Below, piece by piece: positions 37,023 through 42,672 of a DNA stretch of 64,000 nucleotides. The position numbers were made by a program, and so were the translations under genes. Each line of letters starts with the position of its first letter. Within the stretch, counting starts at the first letter, position 1. The DNA is from Escherichia coli (GTDB lineage: Bacteria; Pseudomonadota; Gammaproteobacteria; Enterobacterales; Enterobacteriaceae). The stretch lies in assembly GCF_003334335.1 (NCBI RefSeq), contig NZ_QOWQ01000015.1. One strand, given 5' to 3'. Below the pieces are notes generated by a model. It made no database searches, was not told the DNA's origin, and saw only the letters and a program-made list of their open reading frames with translations.

Positions 37023-37778
37023 ATGAAAAAAGCGGGTCTTCTTTTTTTGGTGATGATAGTTATCGCCGTTGTGGCTGCCGGTATTGGTTACTGGAAATTA
37101 ACCGGTGAAGAGTCGGATACATTACGTAAGATTGTCCTTGAGGAATGTTTGCCCAATCAGCAGCAAAATCAAAATCCTTCGCCATGTGCGGAAGTCAAAC
37201 CCAATGCCGGATACGTGGTTTTAAAAGATCTTAATGGCCCACTGCAATATCTGTTGATGCCAACGTATCGTATTAACGGTACTGAAAGTCCTTTGTTGAC
37301 CGATCCTTCAACGCCGAACTTCTTTTGGTTGGCTTGGCAGGCGCGTGATTTTATGAGCAAAAAATACGGCCAGCCGGTTCCCGATCGCGCGGTTTCTTTG
37401 GCGATCAACTCCCGCACCGGGCGTACGCAAAACCATTTTCATATTCATATCTCTTGTATTCGTCCTGATGTGCGCAAACAGCTGGATAACAATCTGGCGA
37501 ACATCAGCAGCCGCTGGTTGCCACTGCCAGGTGGTTTGCGCGGGCATGAATACCTGGCGCGTCGGGTAACGGAAAGCGAACTGGTACAACGCAGCCCATT
37601 TATGATGCTGGCAGAAGAAGTACCTGAGGCGCGGGAACATATGGGACGCTACGGGCTGGCGATGGTACGGCAGAGTGATAACTCATTTGTATTGCTGGCG
37701 ACACAACGAAATCTACTGACGCTTAACCGTGCTTCAGCCGAGGAAATTCAGGATCATCAGTGTGAGATTTTGCGTTAA
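37023..37778 (+). CDS. cdh: CDP-diacylglycerol pyrophosphatase
   Basis: ORF track 36831..37778 is upstream read-through across the sbp terminator; start at ATG 37023, [17 protein letters not shown]… (251 aa). Confidence 0.92.
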
Positions 37779-37801
37779 GGCGAAGAGTTAAGGAAAGTAA
37801 G

Positions 37802-37824
37802 TGCCGGATATGAAATCCGGCACC
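37802..37824. terminator. Bidirectional hairpin between convergent cdh and tpiA
   Basis: gtgccggat-atgaa-atccggcac, 9-bp perfect stem. Confidence 0.65.
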
Positions 37825-37832
37825 TGTCAGAC

Positions 37833-38600
37833 TTAAGCCTGTTTAGCCGCTTCTGCAGCTTTAACGATTACTGCGAAGGCGTCAGCTTTCAGAGAAGCAC
37901 CACCAACCAGCGCGCCGTCGATATCCGGCTGAGCAAACAGTTCTGCAGCGTTAGACGCGTTTACAGAGCCGCCGTACTGAATGATCACTTGTTCAGCGAT
38001 GTTAGCGTCAACTTTAGCGATGTGGTCACGGATGAATTTGTGAACAGCCTGTGCCTGAGCCGGAGTTGCAGATTTGCCAGTACCGATTGCCCATACAGGT
38101 TCGTAAGCGATAACCGCACCTTCGAATGCCGCAGCACCCTGAGTTTTCAGTACCGCGTCGATCTGACGTGCGCAAACTTCTTCAGTTTTGCCCGCTTCAT
38201 TTTCAGCTTCGGTTTCACCGATGCACAGAACCGGAGTCAGGCCCTGCTCTTTCAGCACCGCGAATTTTTTCGCGATCAGTTCGTCAGATTCTTTGTGGTA
38301 AGTACGACGTTCAGAGTGACCGATGATGATGTACTGTGCGCCGATGTCTTTCAGCATAGCAGCAGAGGTTTCACCGGTGAATGCGCCGGACAGGTTCAGG
38401 TCCACGTTTTGCGCACCCAGCATGATGTGGCTGCCTTCAGCTTCGCGCTTCGCCATATCGATATACATTTCCGGTGGTGCGATTGCAACCGCACAGCCAG
38501 CAACACCTGCCAGCTCTTTACGCAGGTTAGAAACCAGCTCGTGAACCATGTGGCGGCTGCCGTTCAGTTTCCAGTTACCCATCACTAAAGGATGTCGCAT
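37833..38600 (-). CDS. tpiA: Triosephosphate isomerase
   Basis: ORF track, 255 aa, [15 protein letters not shown]…; catalytic motifs. Confidence 0.97.
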
Positions 38601-38707
38601 TTTAATTCTCCACGCTTATAAGCGAATAAAGGAAGATGGCCGCCCCGCAGGGCAGCAGGTCTGTGAAACAGTATAGAGATTCATCGGCACAAAGGCTTTG
38701 CTTTTTG

Positions 38708-39307
38708 TCATTTATTCAAACCTTCAAGCGATTCAGATAGCGCCAGCTTAATCGGTTCAACAGCGAAGGTCAGCCCCTTTTCGCCGTTGTCCGCGACAAC
38801 ATAACGCAGTGCACCTTCTGTCTCGGTGTAATAACGTTTGTTTTTCCCCGCCGTTAGTAGCGACTGCAGTTTTTTCTGGCTTTGTGTTTTGGTCATTAAT
38901 GGGGTGAGTGTGCGGATCACCGCTGCCATGTATTCCTGAGCTTTCGCTTTCGCGGCTTTTTGCTCTGGCCCCTGGATGGGTAGCCAGGTCATTTGAATGC
39001 TTTTGATTTTTAAGGTACCGCGCTCCAGCGCTGTAGAAGCATACAAGTTCTCATTAATTTTACTTGCAGCACGAGTGAGATTGGCTTTGTCGGGACTGCT
39101 GTCGATGGCACGAAATTCGTTCAGTGGCAGGCAGGGATTCTGGCTGTTAAAGTCTTCTCGAAACTGGCTGATGGAGAGATCGAAAGTAGGGGCTCCAGCC
39201 AGCAGATAAGGCGCGGTCGTTGCCGTATCTGGTGTTTGTGCATGCGCCGCTGTTGTAACGGTTAATGCAGAACATAAGAGAAAAAACAGCGTACACCCTG
39301 GCTTCAT
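38708..39307 (-). CDS. yiiQ: Uncharacterised secreted protein YiiQ (DUF1454-like)
   Basis: ORF track, 199 aa, signal peptide MKPGCTLFFLLCSALTVTTAAHA. Confidence 0.85.
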   Translation of the reverse strand: MKPGCTLFFLLCSALTVTTAAHAQTPDTATTAPYLLAGAPTFDLSISQFREDFNSQNPCLPLNEFRAIDSSPDKANLTRAASKINENLYASTALERGTLKIKSIQMTWLPIQGPEQKAAKAKAQEYMAAVIRTLTPLMTKTQSQKKLQSLLTAGKNKRYYTETEGALRYVVADNGEKGLTFAVEPIKLALSESLEGLNK

Positions 39308-39407
39308 TGACAGTACCTTTTGTTATGACTGGCTCCGATTAAAACGATATCTGTCGCCCTTGTCAAAAGGGTAGAATCCTGGAAAAGACAACCATCAAGG
39401 AACTTAC

Positions 39408-39848
39408 ATGACCATACAGCAATGGTTATTCTCATTTAAAGGGCGTATTGGACGCCGTGATTTCTGGATTTGGATAGGCCTGTGGTTCGCAGGCATGCTG
39501 GTGCTTTTCTCACTGGCGGGTAAGAATCTACTCGATATTCAGACCGCGGCGTTTTGCCTTGTGTGCTTGCTCTGGCCAACAGCGGCAGTAACTGTTAAGC
39601 GCTTGCATGATCGCGGGCGTTCCGGCGCATGGGCATTTCTGATGATTGTGGCGTGGATGCTGCTGGCGGGTAACTGGGCGATTTTACCGGGTGTCTGGCA
39701 ATGGGCGGTGGGGCGTTTTGTCCCGACGTTGATTCTGGTGATGATGCTTATCGATCTTGGTGCGTTTGTTGGCACACAAGGCGAAAATAAATATGGTAAA
39801 GATACTCAGGATGTGAAGTATAAAGCCGACAATAAATCAAGTAATTAA
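39408..39848 (+). CDS. yiiR: Uncharacterised inner membrane protein YiiR (DUF805-like)
   Basis: ORF track, 146 aa, several hydrophobic helices. Confidence 0.85.
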   Translation: MTIQQWLFSFKGRIGRRDFWIWIGLWFAGMLVLFSLAGKNLLDIQTAAFCLVCLLWPTAAVTVKRLHDRGRSGAWAFLMIVAWMLLAGNWAILPGVWQWAVGRFVPTLILVMMLIDLGAFVGTQGENKYGKDTQDVKYKADNKSSN

Positions 39849-40059
39849 CCTTTAATATATCTCTTACTGCTATTTTTTTCCGGGATTGTTATTTCCACGA
39901 TGCAAATGACAATACCCGGAAAATCCTTCTGAACTCTTCACCTTAAGCAATATCAAAAAAAATGGTAATCCATAAGATCATTACTTGTTTGTTCTTCCCT
40001 TAACGGCGCATTATTCTTAAGTCGTAATCGACAGAGAGGCGAATATACAGAGGTGCCCT

Positions 40060-40359
40060 ATGAAAGATGTCGTAGATAAATGCAGTACTAAAGGATGTGC
40101 GATTGATATCGGTACGGTGATTGATAACGACAACTGTACCAGTAAGTTTTCGCGCTTTTTTGCCACCCGCGAAGAAGCAGAGTCTTTTATGACCAAACTG
40201 AAAGAGCTTGCCGCCGCTACATCCTCTGCAGATGAAGGGGCCAGCGTGGCCTATAAGATTAAGGATCTGGAGGGGCAAGTTGAGCTTGATGCGGCCTTCA
40301 CTTTCTCATGCCAGGCCGAGATGATTATTTTTGAGTTATCACTGCGTTCGTTAGCTTGA
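40060..40359 (+). CDS. yiiS: Uncharacterised small cytoplasmic protein YiiS
   Basis: ORF track, 99 aa; 26 bp upstream of uspD with an RBS-like GAAGGAG before uspD. Confidence 0.82.
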
Positions 40360-40385
40360 TGGAGTTGCTTTAGAAGGAGTTAAAC

Positions 40386-40814
40386 ATGGCTTATAAACAC
40401 ATTGGCGTGGCAATTTCCGGGAATGAAGAAGATGCCTTACTGGTGAATAAAGCCCTGGAGCTCGCCAGACATAATGACGCTCACCTGACGTTAATTCATA
40501 TTGATGATGGCTTAAGCGAGTTGTATCCGGGTATCTACTTCCCTGCAACAGAAGATATTCTTCAATTGTTGAAGAATAAGTCGGATAACAAGCTGTATAA
40601 ACTGACGAAAAATATTCAATGGCCGAAGACAAAACTGCGTATTGAACGCGGAGAAATGCCGGAAACACTGCTGGAAATTATGCAAAAAGAGCAGTGCGAC
40701 CTCCTTGTCTGTGGTCATCATCACTCATTTATCAACCGTTTGATGCCGGCATATCGCGGGATGATCAATAAGATGAGTGCGGATTTGCTCATCGTGCCGT
40801 TTATCGATAAGTAA
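40386..40814 (+). CDS. uspD: Universal stress protein D
   Basis: ORF track, 142 aa, UspA-fold. Confidence 0.9.
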
Positions 40815-40818
40815 CCGC

Positions 40819-41565
40819 TTACCAGTAATGCTCCGCTGTCATATGGCCCGGTCGGCGACGTAAATGTTTCGTCATCTGCCGGGTCTCTTTCAGCAACTGT
40901 TGTGTATCGCGCACCATCTGTGGATTGCCGCACAGCATCACATGGCTGGTTTCTTTATTCATCGGCAGGCCAATCGTGCTTTCCAGTTCCCCACTTTCAA
41001 TTAATGCCGGTATCCGTCCGGTGAGCGACCCCGCTGCCGTTTCCCGACTGACCACCGTCTGAATGCGCAGTTTTCCTTCGTAGCGTTTTTCCAGTTCCTG
41101 CATCAGTGGCAAATAGCTTAAGTCGGCGGCATAACGTGCGGCGTGCACCAGGACCAGATTTTTGAAGCGATCTAAATCTTTACCTAGTTGCAGAATCGAT
41201 AAATAAGGGCCAATCGCTGTACCGGTTGCCAGCATCCATAGCGTTTCGCAGTGCGGCACTTCATCGAGCACAAAGAATCCTGCCGCTTCGCTAACCACCT
41301 GCACTTCATCGCCTGGTTTCAGTGCCGCCAGTCGTGGGCTTAATTTGCCATCGGGGACGGTGACCAGGTAAAACTCCAGATCGGGATTATCGGGCGAGTT
41401 TACATAGGAGTAGGCGCGCTGGACGCGTTCGCCGTCGATTTCAAGGCCAAGCTTGGTAAATTGCCCGGCGGTAAACGGAAGCACGGGGGCGTGAACGGTG
41501 AGACTAAACAGGGCGTCGGTCCAGTTCTGCACTTTAGTGACTTTGCCTGTTACCCAATCAGCCAT
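40819..41565 (-). CDS. fpr: Ferredoxin/flavodoxin-NADP(+) reductase
   Basis: ORF track, 248 aa; FAD-binding RAYS motif (RAYSYV) and NAD-binding region. Confidence 0.95.
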   Translation of the reverse strand: MADWVTGKVTKVQNWTDALFSLTVHAPVLPFTAGQFTKLGLEIDGERVQRAYSYVNSPDNPDLEFYLVTVPDGKLSPRLAALKPGDEVQVVSEAAGFFVLDEVPHCETLWMLATGTAIGPYLSILQLGKDLDRFKNLVLVHAARYAADLSYLPLMQELEKRYEGKLRIQTVVSRETAAGSLTGRIPALIESGELESTIGLPMNKETSHVMLCGNPQMVRDTQQLLKETRQMTKHLRRRPGHMTAEHYW

Positions 41566-41610
41566 GTTTTTCTCCTGTTTTGATTGACTTGCCTTATCTT
41601 CGTTCTCCGA

Positions 41611-41641
41611 ACAAAAAAATTCCAGTCCCGAAGGACTGGAA
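41611..41641 (-). terminator. Rho-independent terminator at the end of the glpFKX operon
   Basis: ttccagtcc-cgaa-ggactggaa perfect hairpin; on the minus strand it is followed by TTTTTTT. Confidence 0.8.
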
Positions 41642-41661
41642 GGCTCAATCGATCAAATCAA

Positions 41662-42672
41662 TCAGAGGATGTGCACCTGCATTTCCGGGTCTTTGCGATC
41701 CAGATAGTGGATGGACTGAATGCGGCGAATGGTGCGTGACTTGCCGCGGATCAGCAGCGTTTCGGTAGTCGCGATATTGCCTTTGCGGCTAATGCCTTCC
41801 AGCAGATCGCCTTTGGTAATACCGGTGGCAGAGAAGATGACGTTATCGCTGCGCGCCATATCGCCCAGGCGCAATACTTTACCGGCTTCGATGCCCATCG
41901 CTTTGCAGCGTGCCAGCTCCTGCTCGCCAATGCGACGATTCTCTTCGTTGTCGCCTTTGACGTCATGACGCGCCAGCAGACGACCGTTCATGTCGCCATC
42001 TAATGCGCGGATCACCGCCGCAGAAACTACGCCTTCCGGCGCGCCACCAATACCGTACAGCACGTCAACTTCGCTGTCTGGCATACAGGTGAGAATTGAG
42101 GCCGCAACGTCGCCGTCCGGAATAGCAAATACGCGTACGCCGAGTTGCTGCATTTCAGCGATAACGGCATCGTGGCGTGGTTTAGCCAGAATCGTTACCG
42201 TCAGTTCGCTCAACGGTTTGCCGAGCGCCGCCGCTACATTGCGCAGGTTATCCGCCAGCGGCAGGTTCAGATCAATGGTGCCTTTGGCTCCCGGCCCGAC
42301 AATCAGCTTCTCCATATACATATCCGGCGCATTGAGGAAGCAGCCTTTATCGCCTACTGCCAGCACCGCCAGCGCGTTAGCCTGGCCCATCGCCGTCATG
42401 CGCGTGCCTTCAATCGGATCAACAGCAATATCTACCGCGTCGCCGCGACCAGTACCGACTTTTTCACCAATGTAGAGCATCGGTGCTTCGTCGATTTCAC
42501 CTTCACCAATGACGATGGTGCCGTCAATGTTGACCTGGTTGAGCATAATACGCATGGCGTTTACCGCCGCGCCGTCCGCGGTGTTTTTATCGCCGCGTCC
42601 TAACCATTTGTAGCCAGCCAGCGCCGCTGATTCGGTGACGCGGGAAAATTCGATGGCAAGTTCTCGTCTCAT
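41662..42672 (-). CDS. glpX: Fructose-1,6-bisphosphatase class II
   Basis: ORF track 41662..42801 is upstream read-through; start at internal ATG, MRRELAIEFSRVTESAALAGYKW… (336 aa). Confidence 0.95.
   Translation of the reverse strand: MRRELAIEFSRVTESAALAGYKWLGRGDKNTADGAAVNAMRIMLNQVNIDGTIVIGEGEIDEAPMLYIGEKVGTGRGDAVDIAVDPIEGTRMTAMGQANALAVLAVGDKGCFLNAPDMYMEKLIVGPGAKGTIDLNLPLADNLRNVAAALGKPLSELTVTILAKPRHDAVIAEMQQLGVRVFAIPDGDVAASILTCMPDSEVDVLYGIGGAPEGVVSAAVIRALDGDMNGRLLARHDVKGDNEENRRIGEQELARCKAMGIEAGKVLRLGDMARSDNVIFSATGITKGDLLEGISRKGNIATTETLLIRGKSRTIRRIQSIHYLDRKDPEMQVHIL

Follow-up and report, generated by a model that had tools for sequence, protein, structure and literature searches.

Do the four consecutive small genes yiiQ, yiiR, yiiS, and uspD, which lie next to fpr in Escherichia coli, constitute one functional cluster, or are they separate units that merely adjoin? 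The question was examined within a 64,000-nucleotide stretch of E. coli DNA (here called the window). The locus is ordinary, fully annotated E. coli core chromosome: every one of the 5426 complete E. coli genomes searched contained the segment, the RefSeq annotations of MG1655 and of an identical strain contain the same genes, and the genes, the operon, the sigma factor, and three activators have already been published. The coordinates, gene identities, and spacings proposed in a sequence-only reading of this DNA all agreed with the ORF list, the profile searches, and the RefSeq annotation. Its view of the four genes as one cluster did not survive comparison of gene maps and blastn breakpoints, according to which yiiQ-yiiR would be ancestral and yiiS-uspD an insertion found in Escherichia only. 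The best overall explanation, to which we assign a probability of roughly 0.8, comprises two unrelated core-genome modules, an inserted regulated operon, a repeat with a dual role, and overlapping convergent mRNA ends. PADLOC and PHROGs scans gave neither a defense nor a phage signal, and an Rfam scan of positions 37500 to 42000 at a permissive threshold returned a chance microRNA match only, indicating that this interval holds no known RNA family.

Two gene pairs of probably different age

The gene yiiQ (38708-39307, minus strand) encodes a secreted DUF1454 protein of 199 amino acids, and the divergent gene yiiR (39408-39848, plus strand) encodes a DUF805 inner-membrane protein of 146 amino acids. 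In profile searches, YiiQ matched DUF1454 (PF07305) over residues 9 to 192 with an E value of 1.4e-91, and YiiR matched DUF805 (PF05656) over residues 7 to 131 with an E value of 9.5e-19. The YiiQ N terminus, MKPGCTLFFLLCSALTVTTAAHA followed by Q, is a likely signal peptide ending in AHA before that Q, as judged by eye only. A single-sequence AlphaFold model of YiiQ was useless (pLDDT 46.8), and an AF2 model built on a 14-sequence alignment (pLDDT 74.5) was used instead; a structural similarity search with this model returned no convincing relative outside the protein's own family, and a YiiQ profile had no match among PDB sequences. The two genes adjoined each other in 47 of 47 metagenome loci as well as in Salmonella and Citrobacter, and on the evidence of gene order yiiQ-yiiR is an ancestral divergent pair of Enterobacterales. 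This pair of a periplasmic DUF1454 protein and a DUF805 membrane protein would constitute the first module, ancestral to Enterobacteriaceae.

The second pair has a different distribution. The Escherichia-specific segment (39830-40816), delimited by blastn breakpoints and gene maps, contains the yiiR tail, an inverted repeat, a promoter region, yiiS, and uspD. Homology with the comparison sequences L022 and L023 broke off at 39829 and 40817/40821, with Salmonella and Citrobacter koseri homology ending at 39829, and the last ~6 codons of yiiR thus lay within Escherichia-specific DNA. The order yiiR-yiiS-uspD-fpr was shared by E. coli and E. albertii; in Salmonella and C. koseri, yiiR converged directly on fpr across gaps of 105 and 75 bp with REP-like palindromes, and in several genera yiiR and fpr were spaced 0 to 6 nt apart with no scar. 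Among the metagenome loci, yiiS and uspD were absent from all 24 whose YiiQ was 66 to 84% identical, in which yiiR again converged directly on fpr, and present in every one with YiiQ identity of at least 93% that reached past yiiR. Homologs of yiiS in Klebsiella, Kluyvera, Edwardsiella, and Haemophilus occupied other loci and had no UspD within 4 kb, and UspD orthologs of at least 85% identity were confined to Escherichia. No convincing direct repeats marking the insertion were found at its flanks. From the comparative maps, we infer that yiiS-uspD is an Escherichia-specific insertion of ~980 bp between yiiR and fpr. The second module would accordingly be a bicistronic stress operon that entered the Escherichia lineage between the stop codons of yiiR and fpr.

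Two other histories of the locus were considered. In the first, yiiS-uspD would be ancestral here, with repeated losses in Salmonella, Citrobacter, Klebsiella, and other genera. In its favor, DUF406 genes, the family to which yiiS belongs, are present in Klebsiella, Kluyvera, and Edwardsiella, which makes it an old family within the order; however, those copies were at unrelated loci and without UspD, many independent precise deletions would be needed, and the near-abutting, scarless yiiR-fpr junctions point the other way, so that this less parsimonious course of events is very unlikely. The view of the sequence-only reading, a single stress cluster of four genes with linked functions, is scarcely tenable: the genes are adjacent and all small, and UspD is a stress protein, but yiiQ-yiiR occurred without yiiS-uspD at every non-Escherichia locus examined, yiiS homologs elsewhere had other neighbors, and yiiR, unlike yiiS and uspD, is not induced by the regulator YdeO (PMC4222967). 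The different ages of the two modules caution against deriving a function for YiiQ or YiiR from that of UspD.

The YiiS and UspD proteins

All four genes had been described as obscure in the sequence-only reading. That description fits YiiQ, YiiR, and YiiS insofar as none of the three has an assigned biochemical function; it does not fit UspD, for which phenotypes in superoxide defense and intracellular iron have been published (reviewed in PMC8509486), and it overlooks a published structure of YiiS and a reported acid-resistance phenotype (PMC4918353). UspD passed the equivalog model NF007436 with 329.2 bits (cutoff, 203), and the UspA and UspC models scored below their cutoffs. It was related to UspA (1jmv, E value of 7e-22). 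The ATP-binding motif of UspFG is G-2x-G-9x-G(S/T) (PMC8509486); the C-terminal region of UspD has no G-x2-G and so lacks this motif. Among the usp genes, including those for the class I proteins UspA, UspC, and UspD, uspD was the only one seen here in a pair with a DUF406 gene. UspD orthologs were confined to Escherichia save for relatives of 55 to 65% identity, and the two of these that were looked up lay on an island and on a plasmid-like contig.

YiiS was assigned to its family by NF007435 (197.4 bits; cutoff, 130), TIGR00743 (131 bits; cutoff, 71), and Pfam PF04175 (E value of 1.3e-28). It differed from chain A of the solved Shigella NMR structure 2k3i by 1 mismatch in 99 aligned residues (E value of 3.4e-59), and through this match it has the beta-alpha-beta-beta-alpha fold described for DUF406 (PMC2860719). 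Like other members of the YfcZ/YiiS family (DUF406, or UPF0381; structures 2k3i, 2jz5, and 2khd), YiiS retains F82, which is invariant, C84 and E87, which are nearly so, and the CQAE helix. Most DUF406 members, including the E. coli paralog YfcZ, have five or six cysteines (in C/CC, DC, EPC, and CQAE), whereas the YiiS clade keeps four, C8, C13, C26, and C84, which were invariant in alignments of that clade. With CC changed to GCA and EPC to EGA, YiiS lacks the full cysteine set and is a reduced variant of the family rather than a nonmember. YfcZ-type genes adjoin fadL, and of three that were looked up, two were upstream of fadIJ, whereas YiiS-type genes move between loci and pair with a Usp gene.

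Conservation within the YiiS clade was concentrated at the N terminus, where 20 of the 28 positions in residues 1 to 28 were at least 90% conserved, compared with 22 of 71 in the folded domain. In published NMR work, residues 1 to 16 of VPA0419 were removed, and in YiiS, studied in 10 mM DTT and with no added transition metal, residues 1 to 28 were outside the ordered region. Furthermore, a DUF406 gene directly followed asrABC, which encodes anaerobic sulfite reductase, at three places: an island in E. coli, a plasmid-like contig from Salmonella, and the Edwardsiella chromosome. The E. coli and Salmonella copies were each paired with a Usp gene. DUF406 proteins could conceivably be small cysteine-ligated metal, iron-sulfur, or thiol-relay proteins whose functional N terminus was discarded by structural genomics, although we regard this as rather improbable. 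If it were true, a copy of a mobile sulfur- or iron-stress module would have been domesticated beside fpr as the yiiS-uspD operon of Escherichia. The cysteine motif, the link to sulfite reductase genes, and the position of YfcZ next to fadL together supply a concrete hypothesis for an orphan family. The mobile asr-linked pair was not supported as the direct donor: its identities were only 62% for YiiS and 57% for UspD, and the similarity did not extend upstream of the start codon. Large “multi-repeat DUF406” proteins (P0280 and P0286) were also discarded as spurious matches to low-complexity or Calx-like repeats.

Operon control and the inverted repeat upstream of yiiS

The operon consists of yiiS (40060-40359, plus strand; 99 amino acids; DUF406, YfcZ/YiiS family) followed after a gap of 26 bp (40360-40385) by uspD (40386-40814, plus strand; 142 amino acids; class I universal stress protein). 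Cotranscription of the two genes, predicted from their spacing in the sequence-only reading, agrees with the published transcription unit yiiS-yiiT/uspD (PMC4222967). The locus is the same as that of the K-12 yiiS-uspD (yiiS-yiiT) unit, with a spacer identical to that of MG1655 and no difference from the K-12 unit, so that what has been published on the operon, its regulators, and the region they bind applies to it directly. YdeO induces yiiS and uspD equally (0.72 and 0.70 log10, respectively; PMC4222967), and with AppY both are up ~8-fold (PMC10057817). The sigma-E regulon lists the two genes together, with inductions of 1.8-fold for yiiS and 5.1-fold for uspD (PMC2731931), and yiiS serves as a sigma-E reporter (PMC6941253). 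YdeO, AppY, and GadX are AraC-family regulators with the operon as a direct target (PMC4222967, PMC10057817, PMC4918353). Published work places the operon in the sigma-E envelope-stress regulon, with the acid-stress regulators YdeO, AppY, and GadX activating it from the yiiR-yiiS spacer. To this published picture the present analysis adds the Escherichia-specific insertion and the coincidence of the bound region with a hairpin bearing a mapped RNA 3' end.

That hairpin corresponds to an imperfect 48-nt palindrome (39876-39923, plus strand). An imperfect inverted repeat had been noted here from the sequence; it is real, but it is larger than was written, with a stem of ~19 bp. Perfect arms, TTTTCCGGG and CCCGGAAAA, were at 39876-84 and 39915-23, and pairing of 39876-39894 with 39904-39923 as RNA gave -22.8 kcal/mol, compared with -8.5 +/- 2.3 kcal/mol for shuffled sequences (z = -6.3); none of 200 shuffles folded as stably. 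The repeat was present as a single copy per genome in 5426 E. coli genomes, and an origin as a dispersed repeat or MITE was therefore rejected. A Term-seq RNA 3' end mapped to 39930 on the plus strand (PMC7815308 supplement, coordinate 4112837 with printed sequence; offset from comparison with MG1655), 7 nt past the stem; the start codon of yiiS follows 130 nt downstream of this end. This end was weak and appeared in only one of the three conditions, with ~1,170 reads (PMC7815308 tables). The repeat was not called a terminator by a consensus scan, which requires 5 U in 8 where the tail UCCUUCUG has 4, and the hairpin tail UCCUUCU has no proper U-tract. One two-sided base change preserved pairing in E. 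albertii and in divergent E. coli; this covariation, consisting of one base pair in four sequences, was not significant, with 86 of 500 shuffles equaling it.

The position of the GadX site on this sequence depends on an offset of +1977 from an older genome version. So converted, the GadX ChIP-exo site covers ~39871-39891, on the left arm (PMC4918353 table), and the AppY summit falls on the same arm at 39882 (PMC10057817), although the enriched AppY motif was not found at yiiS (PMC10057817). The repeat lies in the intergenic region bound by YdeO, whose box consists of inverted ATTTCA hexamers with 9- to 21-nt spacing (PMC4222967). Two hexamers found by eye, ATTTCC (39891-96) and GGAAAA (39918-23), are 21 nt apart and match that box poorly, at 5/6 and 4/6 positions.

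A candidate sigma-E-type promoter, GAACT-17 nt-TCAAA (39931-39957, plus strand), follows the repeat, with a predicted start near 39964. The pattern scored was a GGAACTT-like -35 element, a spacer of ~16 nt, and a TCAAA-like -10 element, for which the candidate reads TGAACTC, 16 nt, and TCAAA at 39930-39957; it was the only match in the 64-kb window, where 0.13 was expected. In alignments, the candidate -35 element was degenerate and not conserved in the divergent E. coli L007 and in E. albertii. A block from 39943 to 40000 (plus strand) showed 100% identity between E. coli, a divergent E. coli, and E. albertii, and on this conservation it probably holds the core promoter or leader signals of yiiS.

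With a mapped 3' end 7 nt past its stem and GadX and AppY positions on its left arm, the inverted repeat has the appearance of an activator site overlapped by a terminator or attenuator. Situated upstream of the sigma-E-type promoter, it may well have RNA and DNA roles that both hold. As RNA, the strong hairpin would stop plus-strand transcripts that originate in yiiR or begin within the yiiR 3' end, and would thereby insulate or attenuate the operon. In double-stranded DNA, the GadX footprint and the AppY summit coincide with the arms of the repeat, which would be centered on a normal position for an activator, at approximately -80 and -50 relative to the predicted start for sigma-E.

Two other readings of the repeat were weighed. 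The repeat could be an attenuator in a long yiiS-uspD 5' leader that begins inside the yiiR 3' end near 39810, setting how much transcription reaches the operon instead of only terminating the yiiR mRNA. Consistent with this, the 39930 end was kept in the Term-seq 5' UTR table, which demands a mapped start site no more than 200 nt upstream of the 3' end (PMC7815308), the GadX table gives its site at +71 from the start used, which corresponds to a start at ~39810 (PMC4918353), a SELEX peak for the sigma-S holoenzyme is recorded within yiiR, and a promoter-like TTGGCA-17-TATGGT is present at 39769-39797. However, the ~39810 start is deduced rather than read from data, the promoter-like sequence is a weak match (9/12) of a kind no commoner here than in shuffles, the 39930 end is of low abundance, and read-through from yiiR accounts for the same end; we consider such a leader possible but doubtful. 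The other view, that the repeat acts only as double-stranded DNA, a two-fold symmetric site for dimeric AraC-family activators with the RNA hairpin as a by-product, is unlikely. It would explain the GadX footprint and AppY summit on the left arm and the YdeO-like inverted hexamers, and the two-sided change in E. albertii keeps DNA symmetry as well as RNA pairing. The transcript 3' end just beyond the stem argues against it, as do the poor hexamer match and the absence of the AppY motif. A repeat serving in both capacities is the reading that we retain.

Convergent ends of uspD and fpr

The convergent neighbor of the operon, fpr (40819-41565, minus strand; identified by ORF and annotation), encodes ferredoxin/flavodoxin-NADP+ reductase and is separated from uspD by 4 bp (40815-40818, CCGC). 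A consensus scan detected no terminator-like site between the two genes, and the earlier remark that there is no room for one was confirmed by Term-seq 3' ends, each of which falls within the opposite gene (PMC7815308). Because the insertion left only 4 bp, both genes lack an intergenic terminator. The uspD mRNA feature (40845-40889, plus strand) lies antisense inside fpr and consists of a hairpin (40845-40885; -22 kcal/mol, z = -3.3) and a 3' end 4 nt past it at 40889 (Term-seq coordinate 4113796), near a Rho termination region at ~40893 (Rho table coordinate 4113800; PMC7815308). The corresponding fpr mRNA feature (40689-40726, minus strand) comprises a hairpin and a 3' end at 40693 (Term-seq coordinate 4113600), 126 nt inside uspD and antisense to it. 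This end was abundant, with 50,000 to 63,000 reads in three conditions, and was near a Rho termination region at ~40669 (Rho table coordinate 4113576; PMC7815308). Its interpretation as a hairpin plus U5 was rejected, since the printed sequence runs 10 nt past the end and the true end is at the hairpin base.

By these published 3' ends, the uspD and fpr mRNAs overlap by 197 nt in antisense. Each mRNA enters the opposing gene and stops at a hairpin within a Rho-dependent region, thereby generating the overlap. The arrangement resembles other overlapping convergent units with Rho-dependent, hairpin-stabilized ends, in which the ends likewise lie at hairpins inside the opposing ORF near bicyclomycin-sensitive regions. 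It differs from them in that uspD and fpr share no bidirectional intrinsic terminator, and in that the fpr 3' end has a tight junction as an ancestral trait, with 0 nt separating yiiR from fpr in L067. The 4-bp junction is thus simply explained, since tight convergence on fpr is ancestral and was preserved by the insertion. The gene fpr is under SoxRS control, and the 197-nt overlap makes transcriptional or antisense interference between the stress operon and fpr directly testable.

Gene map and distribution of the locus

Gene intervals were read from the raw sequence and a list of ORFs in all six frames, and families were assigned by profile searches. The interval contained yiiQ (38708-39307, minus strand; DUF1454, E 1.4e-91), yiiR (39408-39848, plus strand; DUF805, E 9.5e-19), yiiS (40060-40359, plus strand; DUF406, with an NCBIfam equivalog score of 197 bits, above the cutoff of 130), uspD (40386-40814, plus strand; UspD equivalog score of 329 bits, above the cutoff of 203), and fpr (40819-41565, minus strand). 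The same gene names are used in the RefSeq annotations of an identical strain and of K-12 MG1655, and a 2.3-kb query covering the region found matches in all 5426 complete E. coli genomes, with at least 99% identity in 4224 of them. The gaps that the sequence-only reading had claimed, 26 bp between yiiS and uspD and 4 bp between uspD and fpr, were exact; the observation is accurate, and its object is ordinary and previously described. A GC-rich hairpin between yiiQ and tpiA (38639-38656, minus strand; GCTGCCCTGCGGGGCGGC), with only a weak T-tail, may separate yiiQ from the tpiA promoter.

The same reading had treated yiiQ, yiiR, yiiS, and uspD as one cluster, and this grouping did not survive comparison across genera, which splits the genes into two modules: at the non-Escherichia loci compared, yiiQ-yiiR occurred without yiiS-uspD. 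In E. coli and E. albertii, the gene order was tpiA-yiiQ-yiiR-yiiS-uspD-fpr-glpX. In Salmonella and Citrobacter koseri, glpX-fpr was followed by directly convergent yiiR-yiiQ-tpiA, with fpr-yiiR gaps of 105 bp (Salmonella locus L022:3367-3471) and 75 bp (C. koseri locus L023:3379-3453). These gaps were filled with REP-like GC-rich palindromes (gccggataag..., gcccggtggcgctg...cttaccgggc), which were absent at the E. coli site. Among 47 metagenome loci carrying yiiQ, all those with YiiQ identity of at least 93% (Escherichia) that reached past yiiR had yiiS, plus uspD where the contig extended far enough, and both genes were missing from 24 of the 24 loci with YiiQ identities of 66-84%. Aligned with Salmonella or C. 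koseri DNA, the E. coli sequence lost homology at 39829 and regained it at 40817-40821; therefore, about 980 bp, holding the last few yiiR codons, the inverted repeat, the promoter region, yiiS, and uspD, is Escherichia specific. All UspD orthologues with at least 85% identity came from Escherichia or from unnamed metagenome sequences. Going by these distributions, a single gain of yiiS-uspD in the Escherichia ancestor is the most economical explanation. An Escherichia-specific insertion of the operon was not described in the publications consulted and is a lead of modest weight.

Scanning genomes with a YiiS alignment yielded only 15 loci. The yiiS homologues of Kluyvera, Klebsiella, Edwardsiella, and Haemophilus lay elsewhere, with none of the six other genes of the locus within 4 kb. 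The Kluyvera copy had fimbrial and HlyD genes as neighbors; in Klebsiella, the neighboring genes were curcumin reductase-like and amidohydrolase-like. The Edwardsiella hoshinae segment (L011:2006-5984) contained asrB, asrC, yiiS, a gene for a small SoxS/AraC-like regulator, and the lipoprotein gene slp; a 349-amino-acid ORF preceding asrB is presumably asrA. In E. coli, slp and yiiS have the AraC-family regulators YdeO, AppY, and GadX in common, and these shared regulators together with the adjacency in Edwardsiella imply that the association of slp with yiiS may be older than Escherichia.

Regulation of yiiS-uspD and the inverted repeat

Cotranscription of yiiS and uspD, proposed from their spacing, agrees with a named transcription unit, yiiS-uspD (alias yiiS-yiiT), and with equal induction of the two genes by YdeO (0.72 and 0.70 log10, respectively), to which yiiR did not respond (PMC4222967). 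ChIP-chip and gel shift experiments also showed YdeO binding to the spacer that precedes yiiS, and YdeO raised expression of a yiiS-lacZ fusion (PMC4222967). AppY, a YdeO paralogue, gave a ChIP-seq peak summit at MG1655 position 4112789 and raised yiiS and uspD mRNAs about 8-fold (PMC10057817). GadX bound upstream of yiiS-uspD in ChIP-exo experiments, and a yiiS deletion implicated the gene in general acid resistance (PMC4918353). Furthermore, sigma-E regulon lists from several groups include yiiS and uspD (PMC2731931), and yiiS is in use as a sigma-E reporter gene (PMC6941253).

Published positions were converted by subtracting 4,072,907 from the MG1655 coordinate. As a positive control, the clean intrinsic terminator after glpX (41620-41641, minus strand; TTCCAGTCCTTCGGGACTGGAA followed by T7) coincided with a 3' end published from Term-seq data; its MG1655 position, 4114522, converts to 41615 in the window.

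The imperfect inverted repeat noticed in the yiiR-yiiS spacer is real and was larger than first described, with perfect 9-nt outer arms. The full hairpin (39876-39894 paired with 39904-39923) had a folding energy of -22.8 kcal/mol and a z score of -6.3, and none of 200 shuffles was as stable. Every E. coli genome carried one copy; therefore, it is not a dispersed repeat. An Rfam scan of the region gave no match. As judged from sequence variants, the pairing is apparently maintained within Escherichia: common E. coli variants affected a bulged base or a loop base or turned an A-U pair into G-U, and a divergent E. coli and E. albertii showed a two-sided change in the stem from U-A to C-G. The cells of the repeat were paired in 92.9% of cases, compared with 33-54% when partners were slid by one to three columns; covariation across the four sequences was nonsignificant, being equaled by 86 of 500 shuffles.

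The AppY summit (PMC10057817) converts to 39882, in the left arm of the repeat. The GadX site, 4110801-4110821 in an older genome version, converts to 39871-39891, also in the left arm. The latter conversion uses a genome-version offset that we take to be +1977. A plus-strand RNA 3' end mapped by Term-seq at MG1655 4112837 corresponds to 39930, 7 nt past the stem, as confirmed by the sequence printed in the table; this end was weak, being supported by about 1,170 reads in a single condition out of three (PMC7815308). The repeat is not a textbook intrinsic terminator, because the tail past the stem is UCCUUCU, and a consensus terminator scan did not call it. The Term-seq "5' UTR" table, whose filter demands a mapped start at most 200 nt upstream, retains this end (PMC7815308), and the position of +71 given for the site in the GadX table corresponds to a start near 39810, within the 3' end of yiiR (PMC4918353). 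A promoter-like site, TTGGCA-17-TATGGT, lies within this 3' end (39769-39810 region, plus strand); a start near 39810 is implied by both sources, and a sigma-S holoenzyme SELEX peak is listed within yiiR (PMC5493296).

Directly after the 3' end at 39930 lies a candidate sigma-E-type promoter, GAACT-N17-TCAAA (39931-39957, plus strand), which was the sole match in the 64-kb window, where 0.13 would be expected. It agrees with what we take to be the sigma-E consensus. Its -35 half was not conserved in the divergent E. coli or in E. albertii, and positions 39943-40000 were 100% conserved in the comparison with both. As RNA, the repeat would end or attenuate transcripts coming from upstream, as the published 3' end data suggest; as DNA, it could seat AraC-family activators at roughly -80 and -50 relative to the predicted sigma-E start. 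The coincidence of the hairpin with a mapped RNA 3' end and activator binding positions was not described in the publications consulted and carries modest weight as a lead.

Convergence of uspD and fpr

The uspD-fpr gap was said to leave no room for a terminator, and the published 3' ends indeed lie inside the opposing genes (PMC7815308). The fpr mRNA ends at 40693 (minus strand; 50,000-63,000 Term-seq reads in all three conditions), 126 nt within uspD and at the base of a hairpin, with a bicyclomycin-sensitive (Rho) region nearby at about 40669 (PMC7815308). The uspD mRNA has a weaker Term-seq end at 40889 (plus strand), within fpr and 4 nt past a hairpin of -22 kcal/mol (z score of -3.3); the Rho region reported here is at about 40893 (PMC7815308). 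The two mRNAs therefore overlap by 197 nt. The hairpin in the 3' coding region of fpr was kept in some genera without uspD and not in Salmonella; because the sequence is coding, its conservation says little.

In one non-Escherichia Enterobacteriaceae locus (L067:1964-1969), the fpr stop codon TAA ran straight into TCA, which is the yiiR stop codon read in reverse complement (TAATCA; gap of 0 nt), and five more such loci (L068, L071, L072, L075, and L076) had fpr-yiiR gaps of about 6 nt. Therefore, tight convergence on fpr is ancestral and predates the insertion of yiiS-uspD, which preserved it.

DUF406 proteins and the other gene products

All four genes had been considered obscure, a view contradicted by UspD phenotypes (PMC8509486), the NMR structure 2k3i of YiiS, and the acid-resistance phenotype reported for yiiS (PMC4918353). 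UspD belongs to class I of the universal stress proteins and has been implicated in superoxide defense and intracellular iron (review, PMC8509486). Literature searches found no functional studies of yiiQ, yiiR, DUF1454, or DUF805, and DUF805 was the sole match of YiiR. The AlphaFold model of YiiQ, built with a 14-sequence alignment, was usable (mean pLDDT of 74.5), and most 10-residue blocks of its core (residues 40-188) averaged 80-96. An AFDB50 search with YiiQ returned DUF1454 proteins across Enterobacterales and one weak Aeromonas match; YiiQ is a "conserved periplasmic protein" for which no function beyond that can be proposed.

YiiS differed from 2k3i by one mismatch in 99 aligned residues, and the only suggestion of the authors of that structure was a weak resemblance to pterin-4a-carbinolamine dehydratases (PMC2860719). 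The DUF406 family is small, numbering 77 cluster representatives in 1.84 billion proteins, and its consensus has the cysteine pattern C/CC ... DC ... EPC ... CQAE. Among three long proteins (P0280, P0286, and P0293; 787-1083 amino acids) that scored as having five to six DUF406 stretches, P0280 and P0286 gave spurious hits, being low-complexity or Calx-like repeat proteins. E. coli yfcZ, which has no published function and was present in all 5426 genomes, belongs to the cysteine-rich type. Cysteine-rich genes adjoined the fatty-acid porin gene fadL in three of three contexts (L028:5001-5297, L030:1015-1299, and L032:5001-5288), and two of the three members (P0245 and P0253) were also upstream of fadI/fadJ-like thiolase and dehydrogenase genes.

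The YiiS clade retains four cysteines, and its best-conserved part is residues 1-28. This segment is not part of the ordered region in the NMR structure, which was determined in 10 mM DTT with no transition metal present; the Vibrio DUF406 NMR construct was made without residues 1-16. Between genera, yiiS DNA was alignable by blastn only over its first ~80 nt (40060-40140) and last ~50 nt (40295-40350), at 75-87% identity, the middle having diverged past detection. At the protein level, Escherichia YiiS shared 52-62% identity with its Kluyvera, Klebsiella, and Edwardsiella homologues, compared with 82% between E. coli and Salmonella for the very highly conserved YiiQ.

A mobile paralogous pair, consisting of a DUF406 gene (99 amino acids, 62% identical to YiiS) and a Usp gene (140 amino acids, 57% identical to UspD) 29 bp apart, directly followed the anaerobic sulfite reductase genes asrABC on the E. 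coli OU349843.1 island (L024:3232-6423) and two metagenome contigs; the pair or a related region was listed at loci L025, L026, L027, and L080 as well. These arrangements favor, short of proof, a connection of DUF406-Usp pairs with sulfite or sulfur chemistry. The conserved cysteine motif of DUF406 and the connection with asr genes were not described in the publications consulted and are likewise leads of modest weight. AlpA, YagK/YfjJ, and Hha genes were near the module on the E. coli island, and a Salmonella contig had a related region near Rep3 and integrase genes, in which only the Usp gene was called and YiiS-like DNA was detectable just upstream. Most of the module was present in 3 of the 5426 complete E. 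coli genomes.
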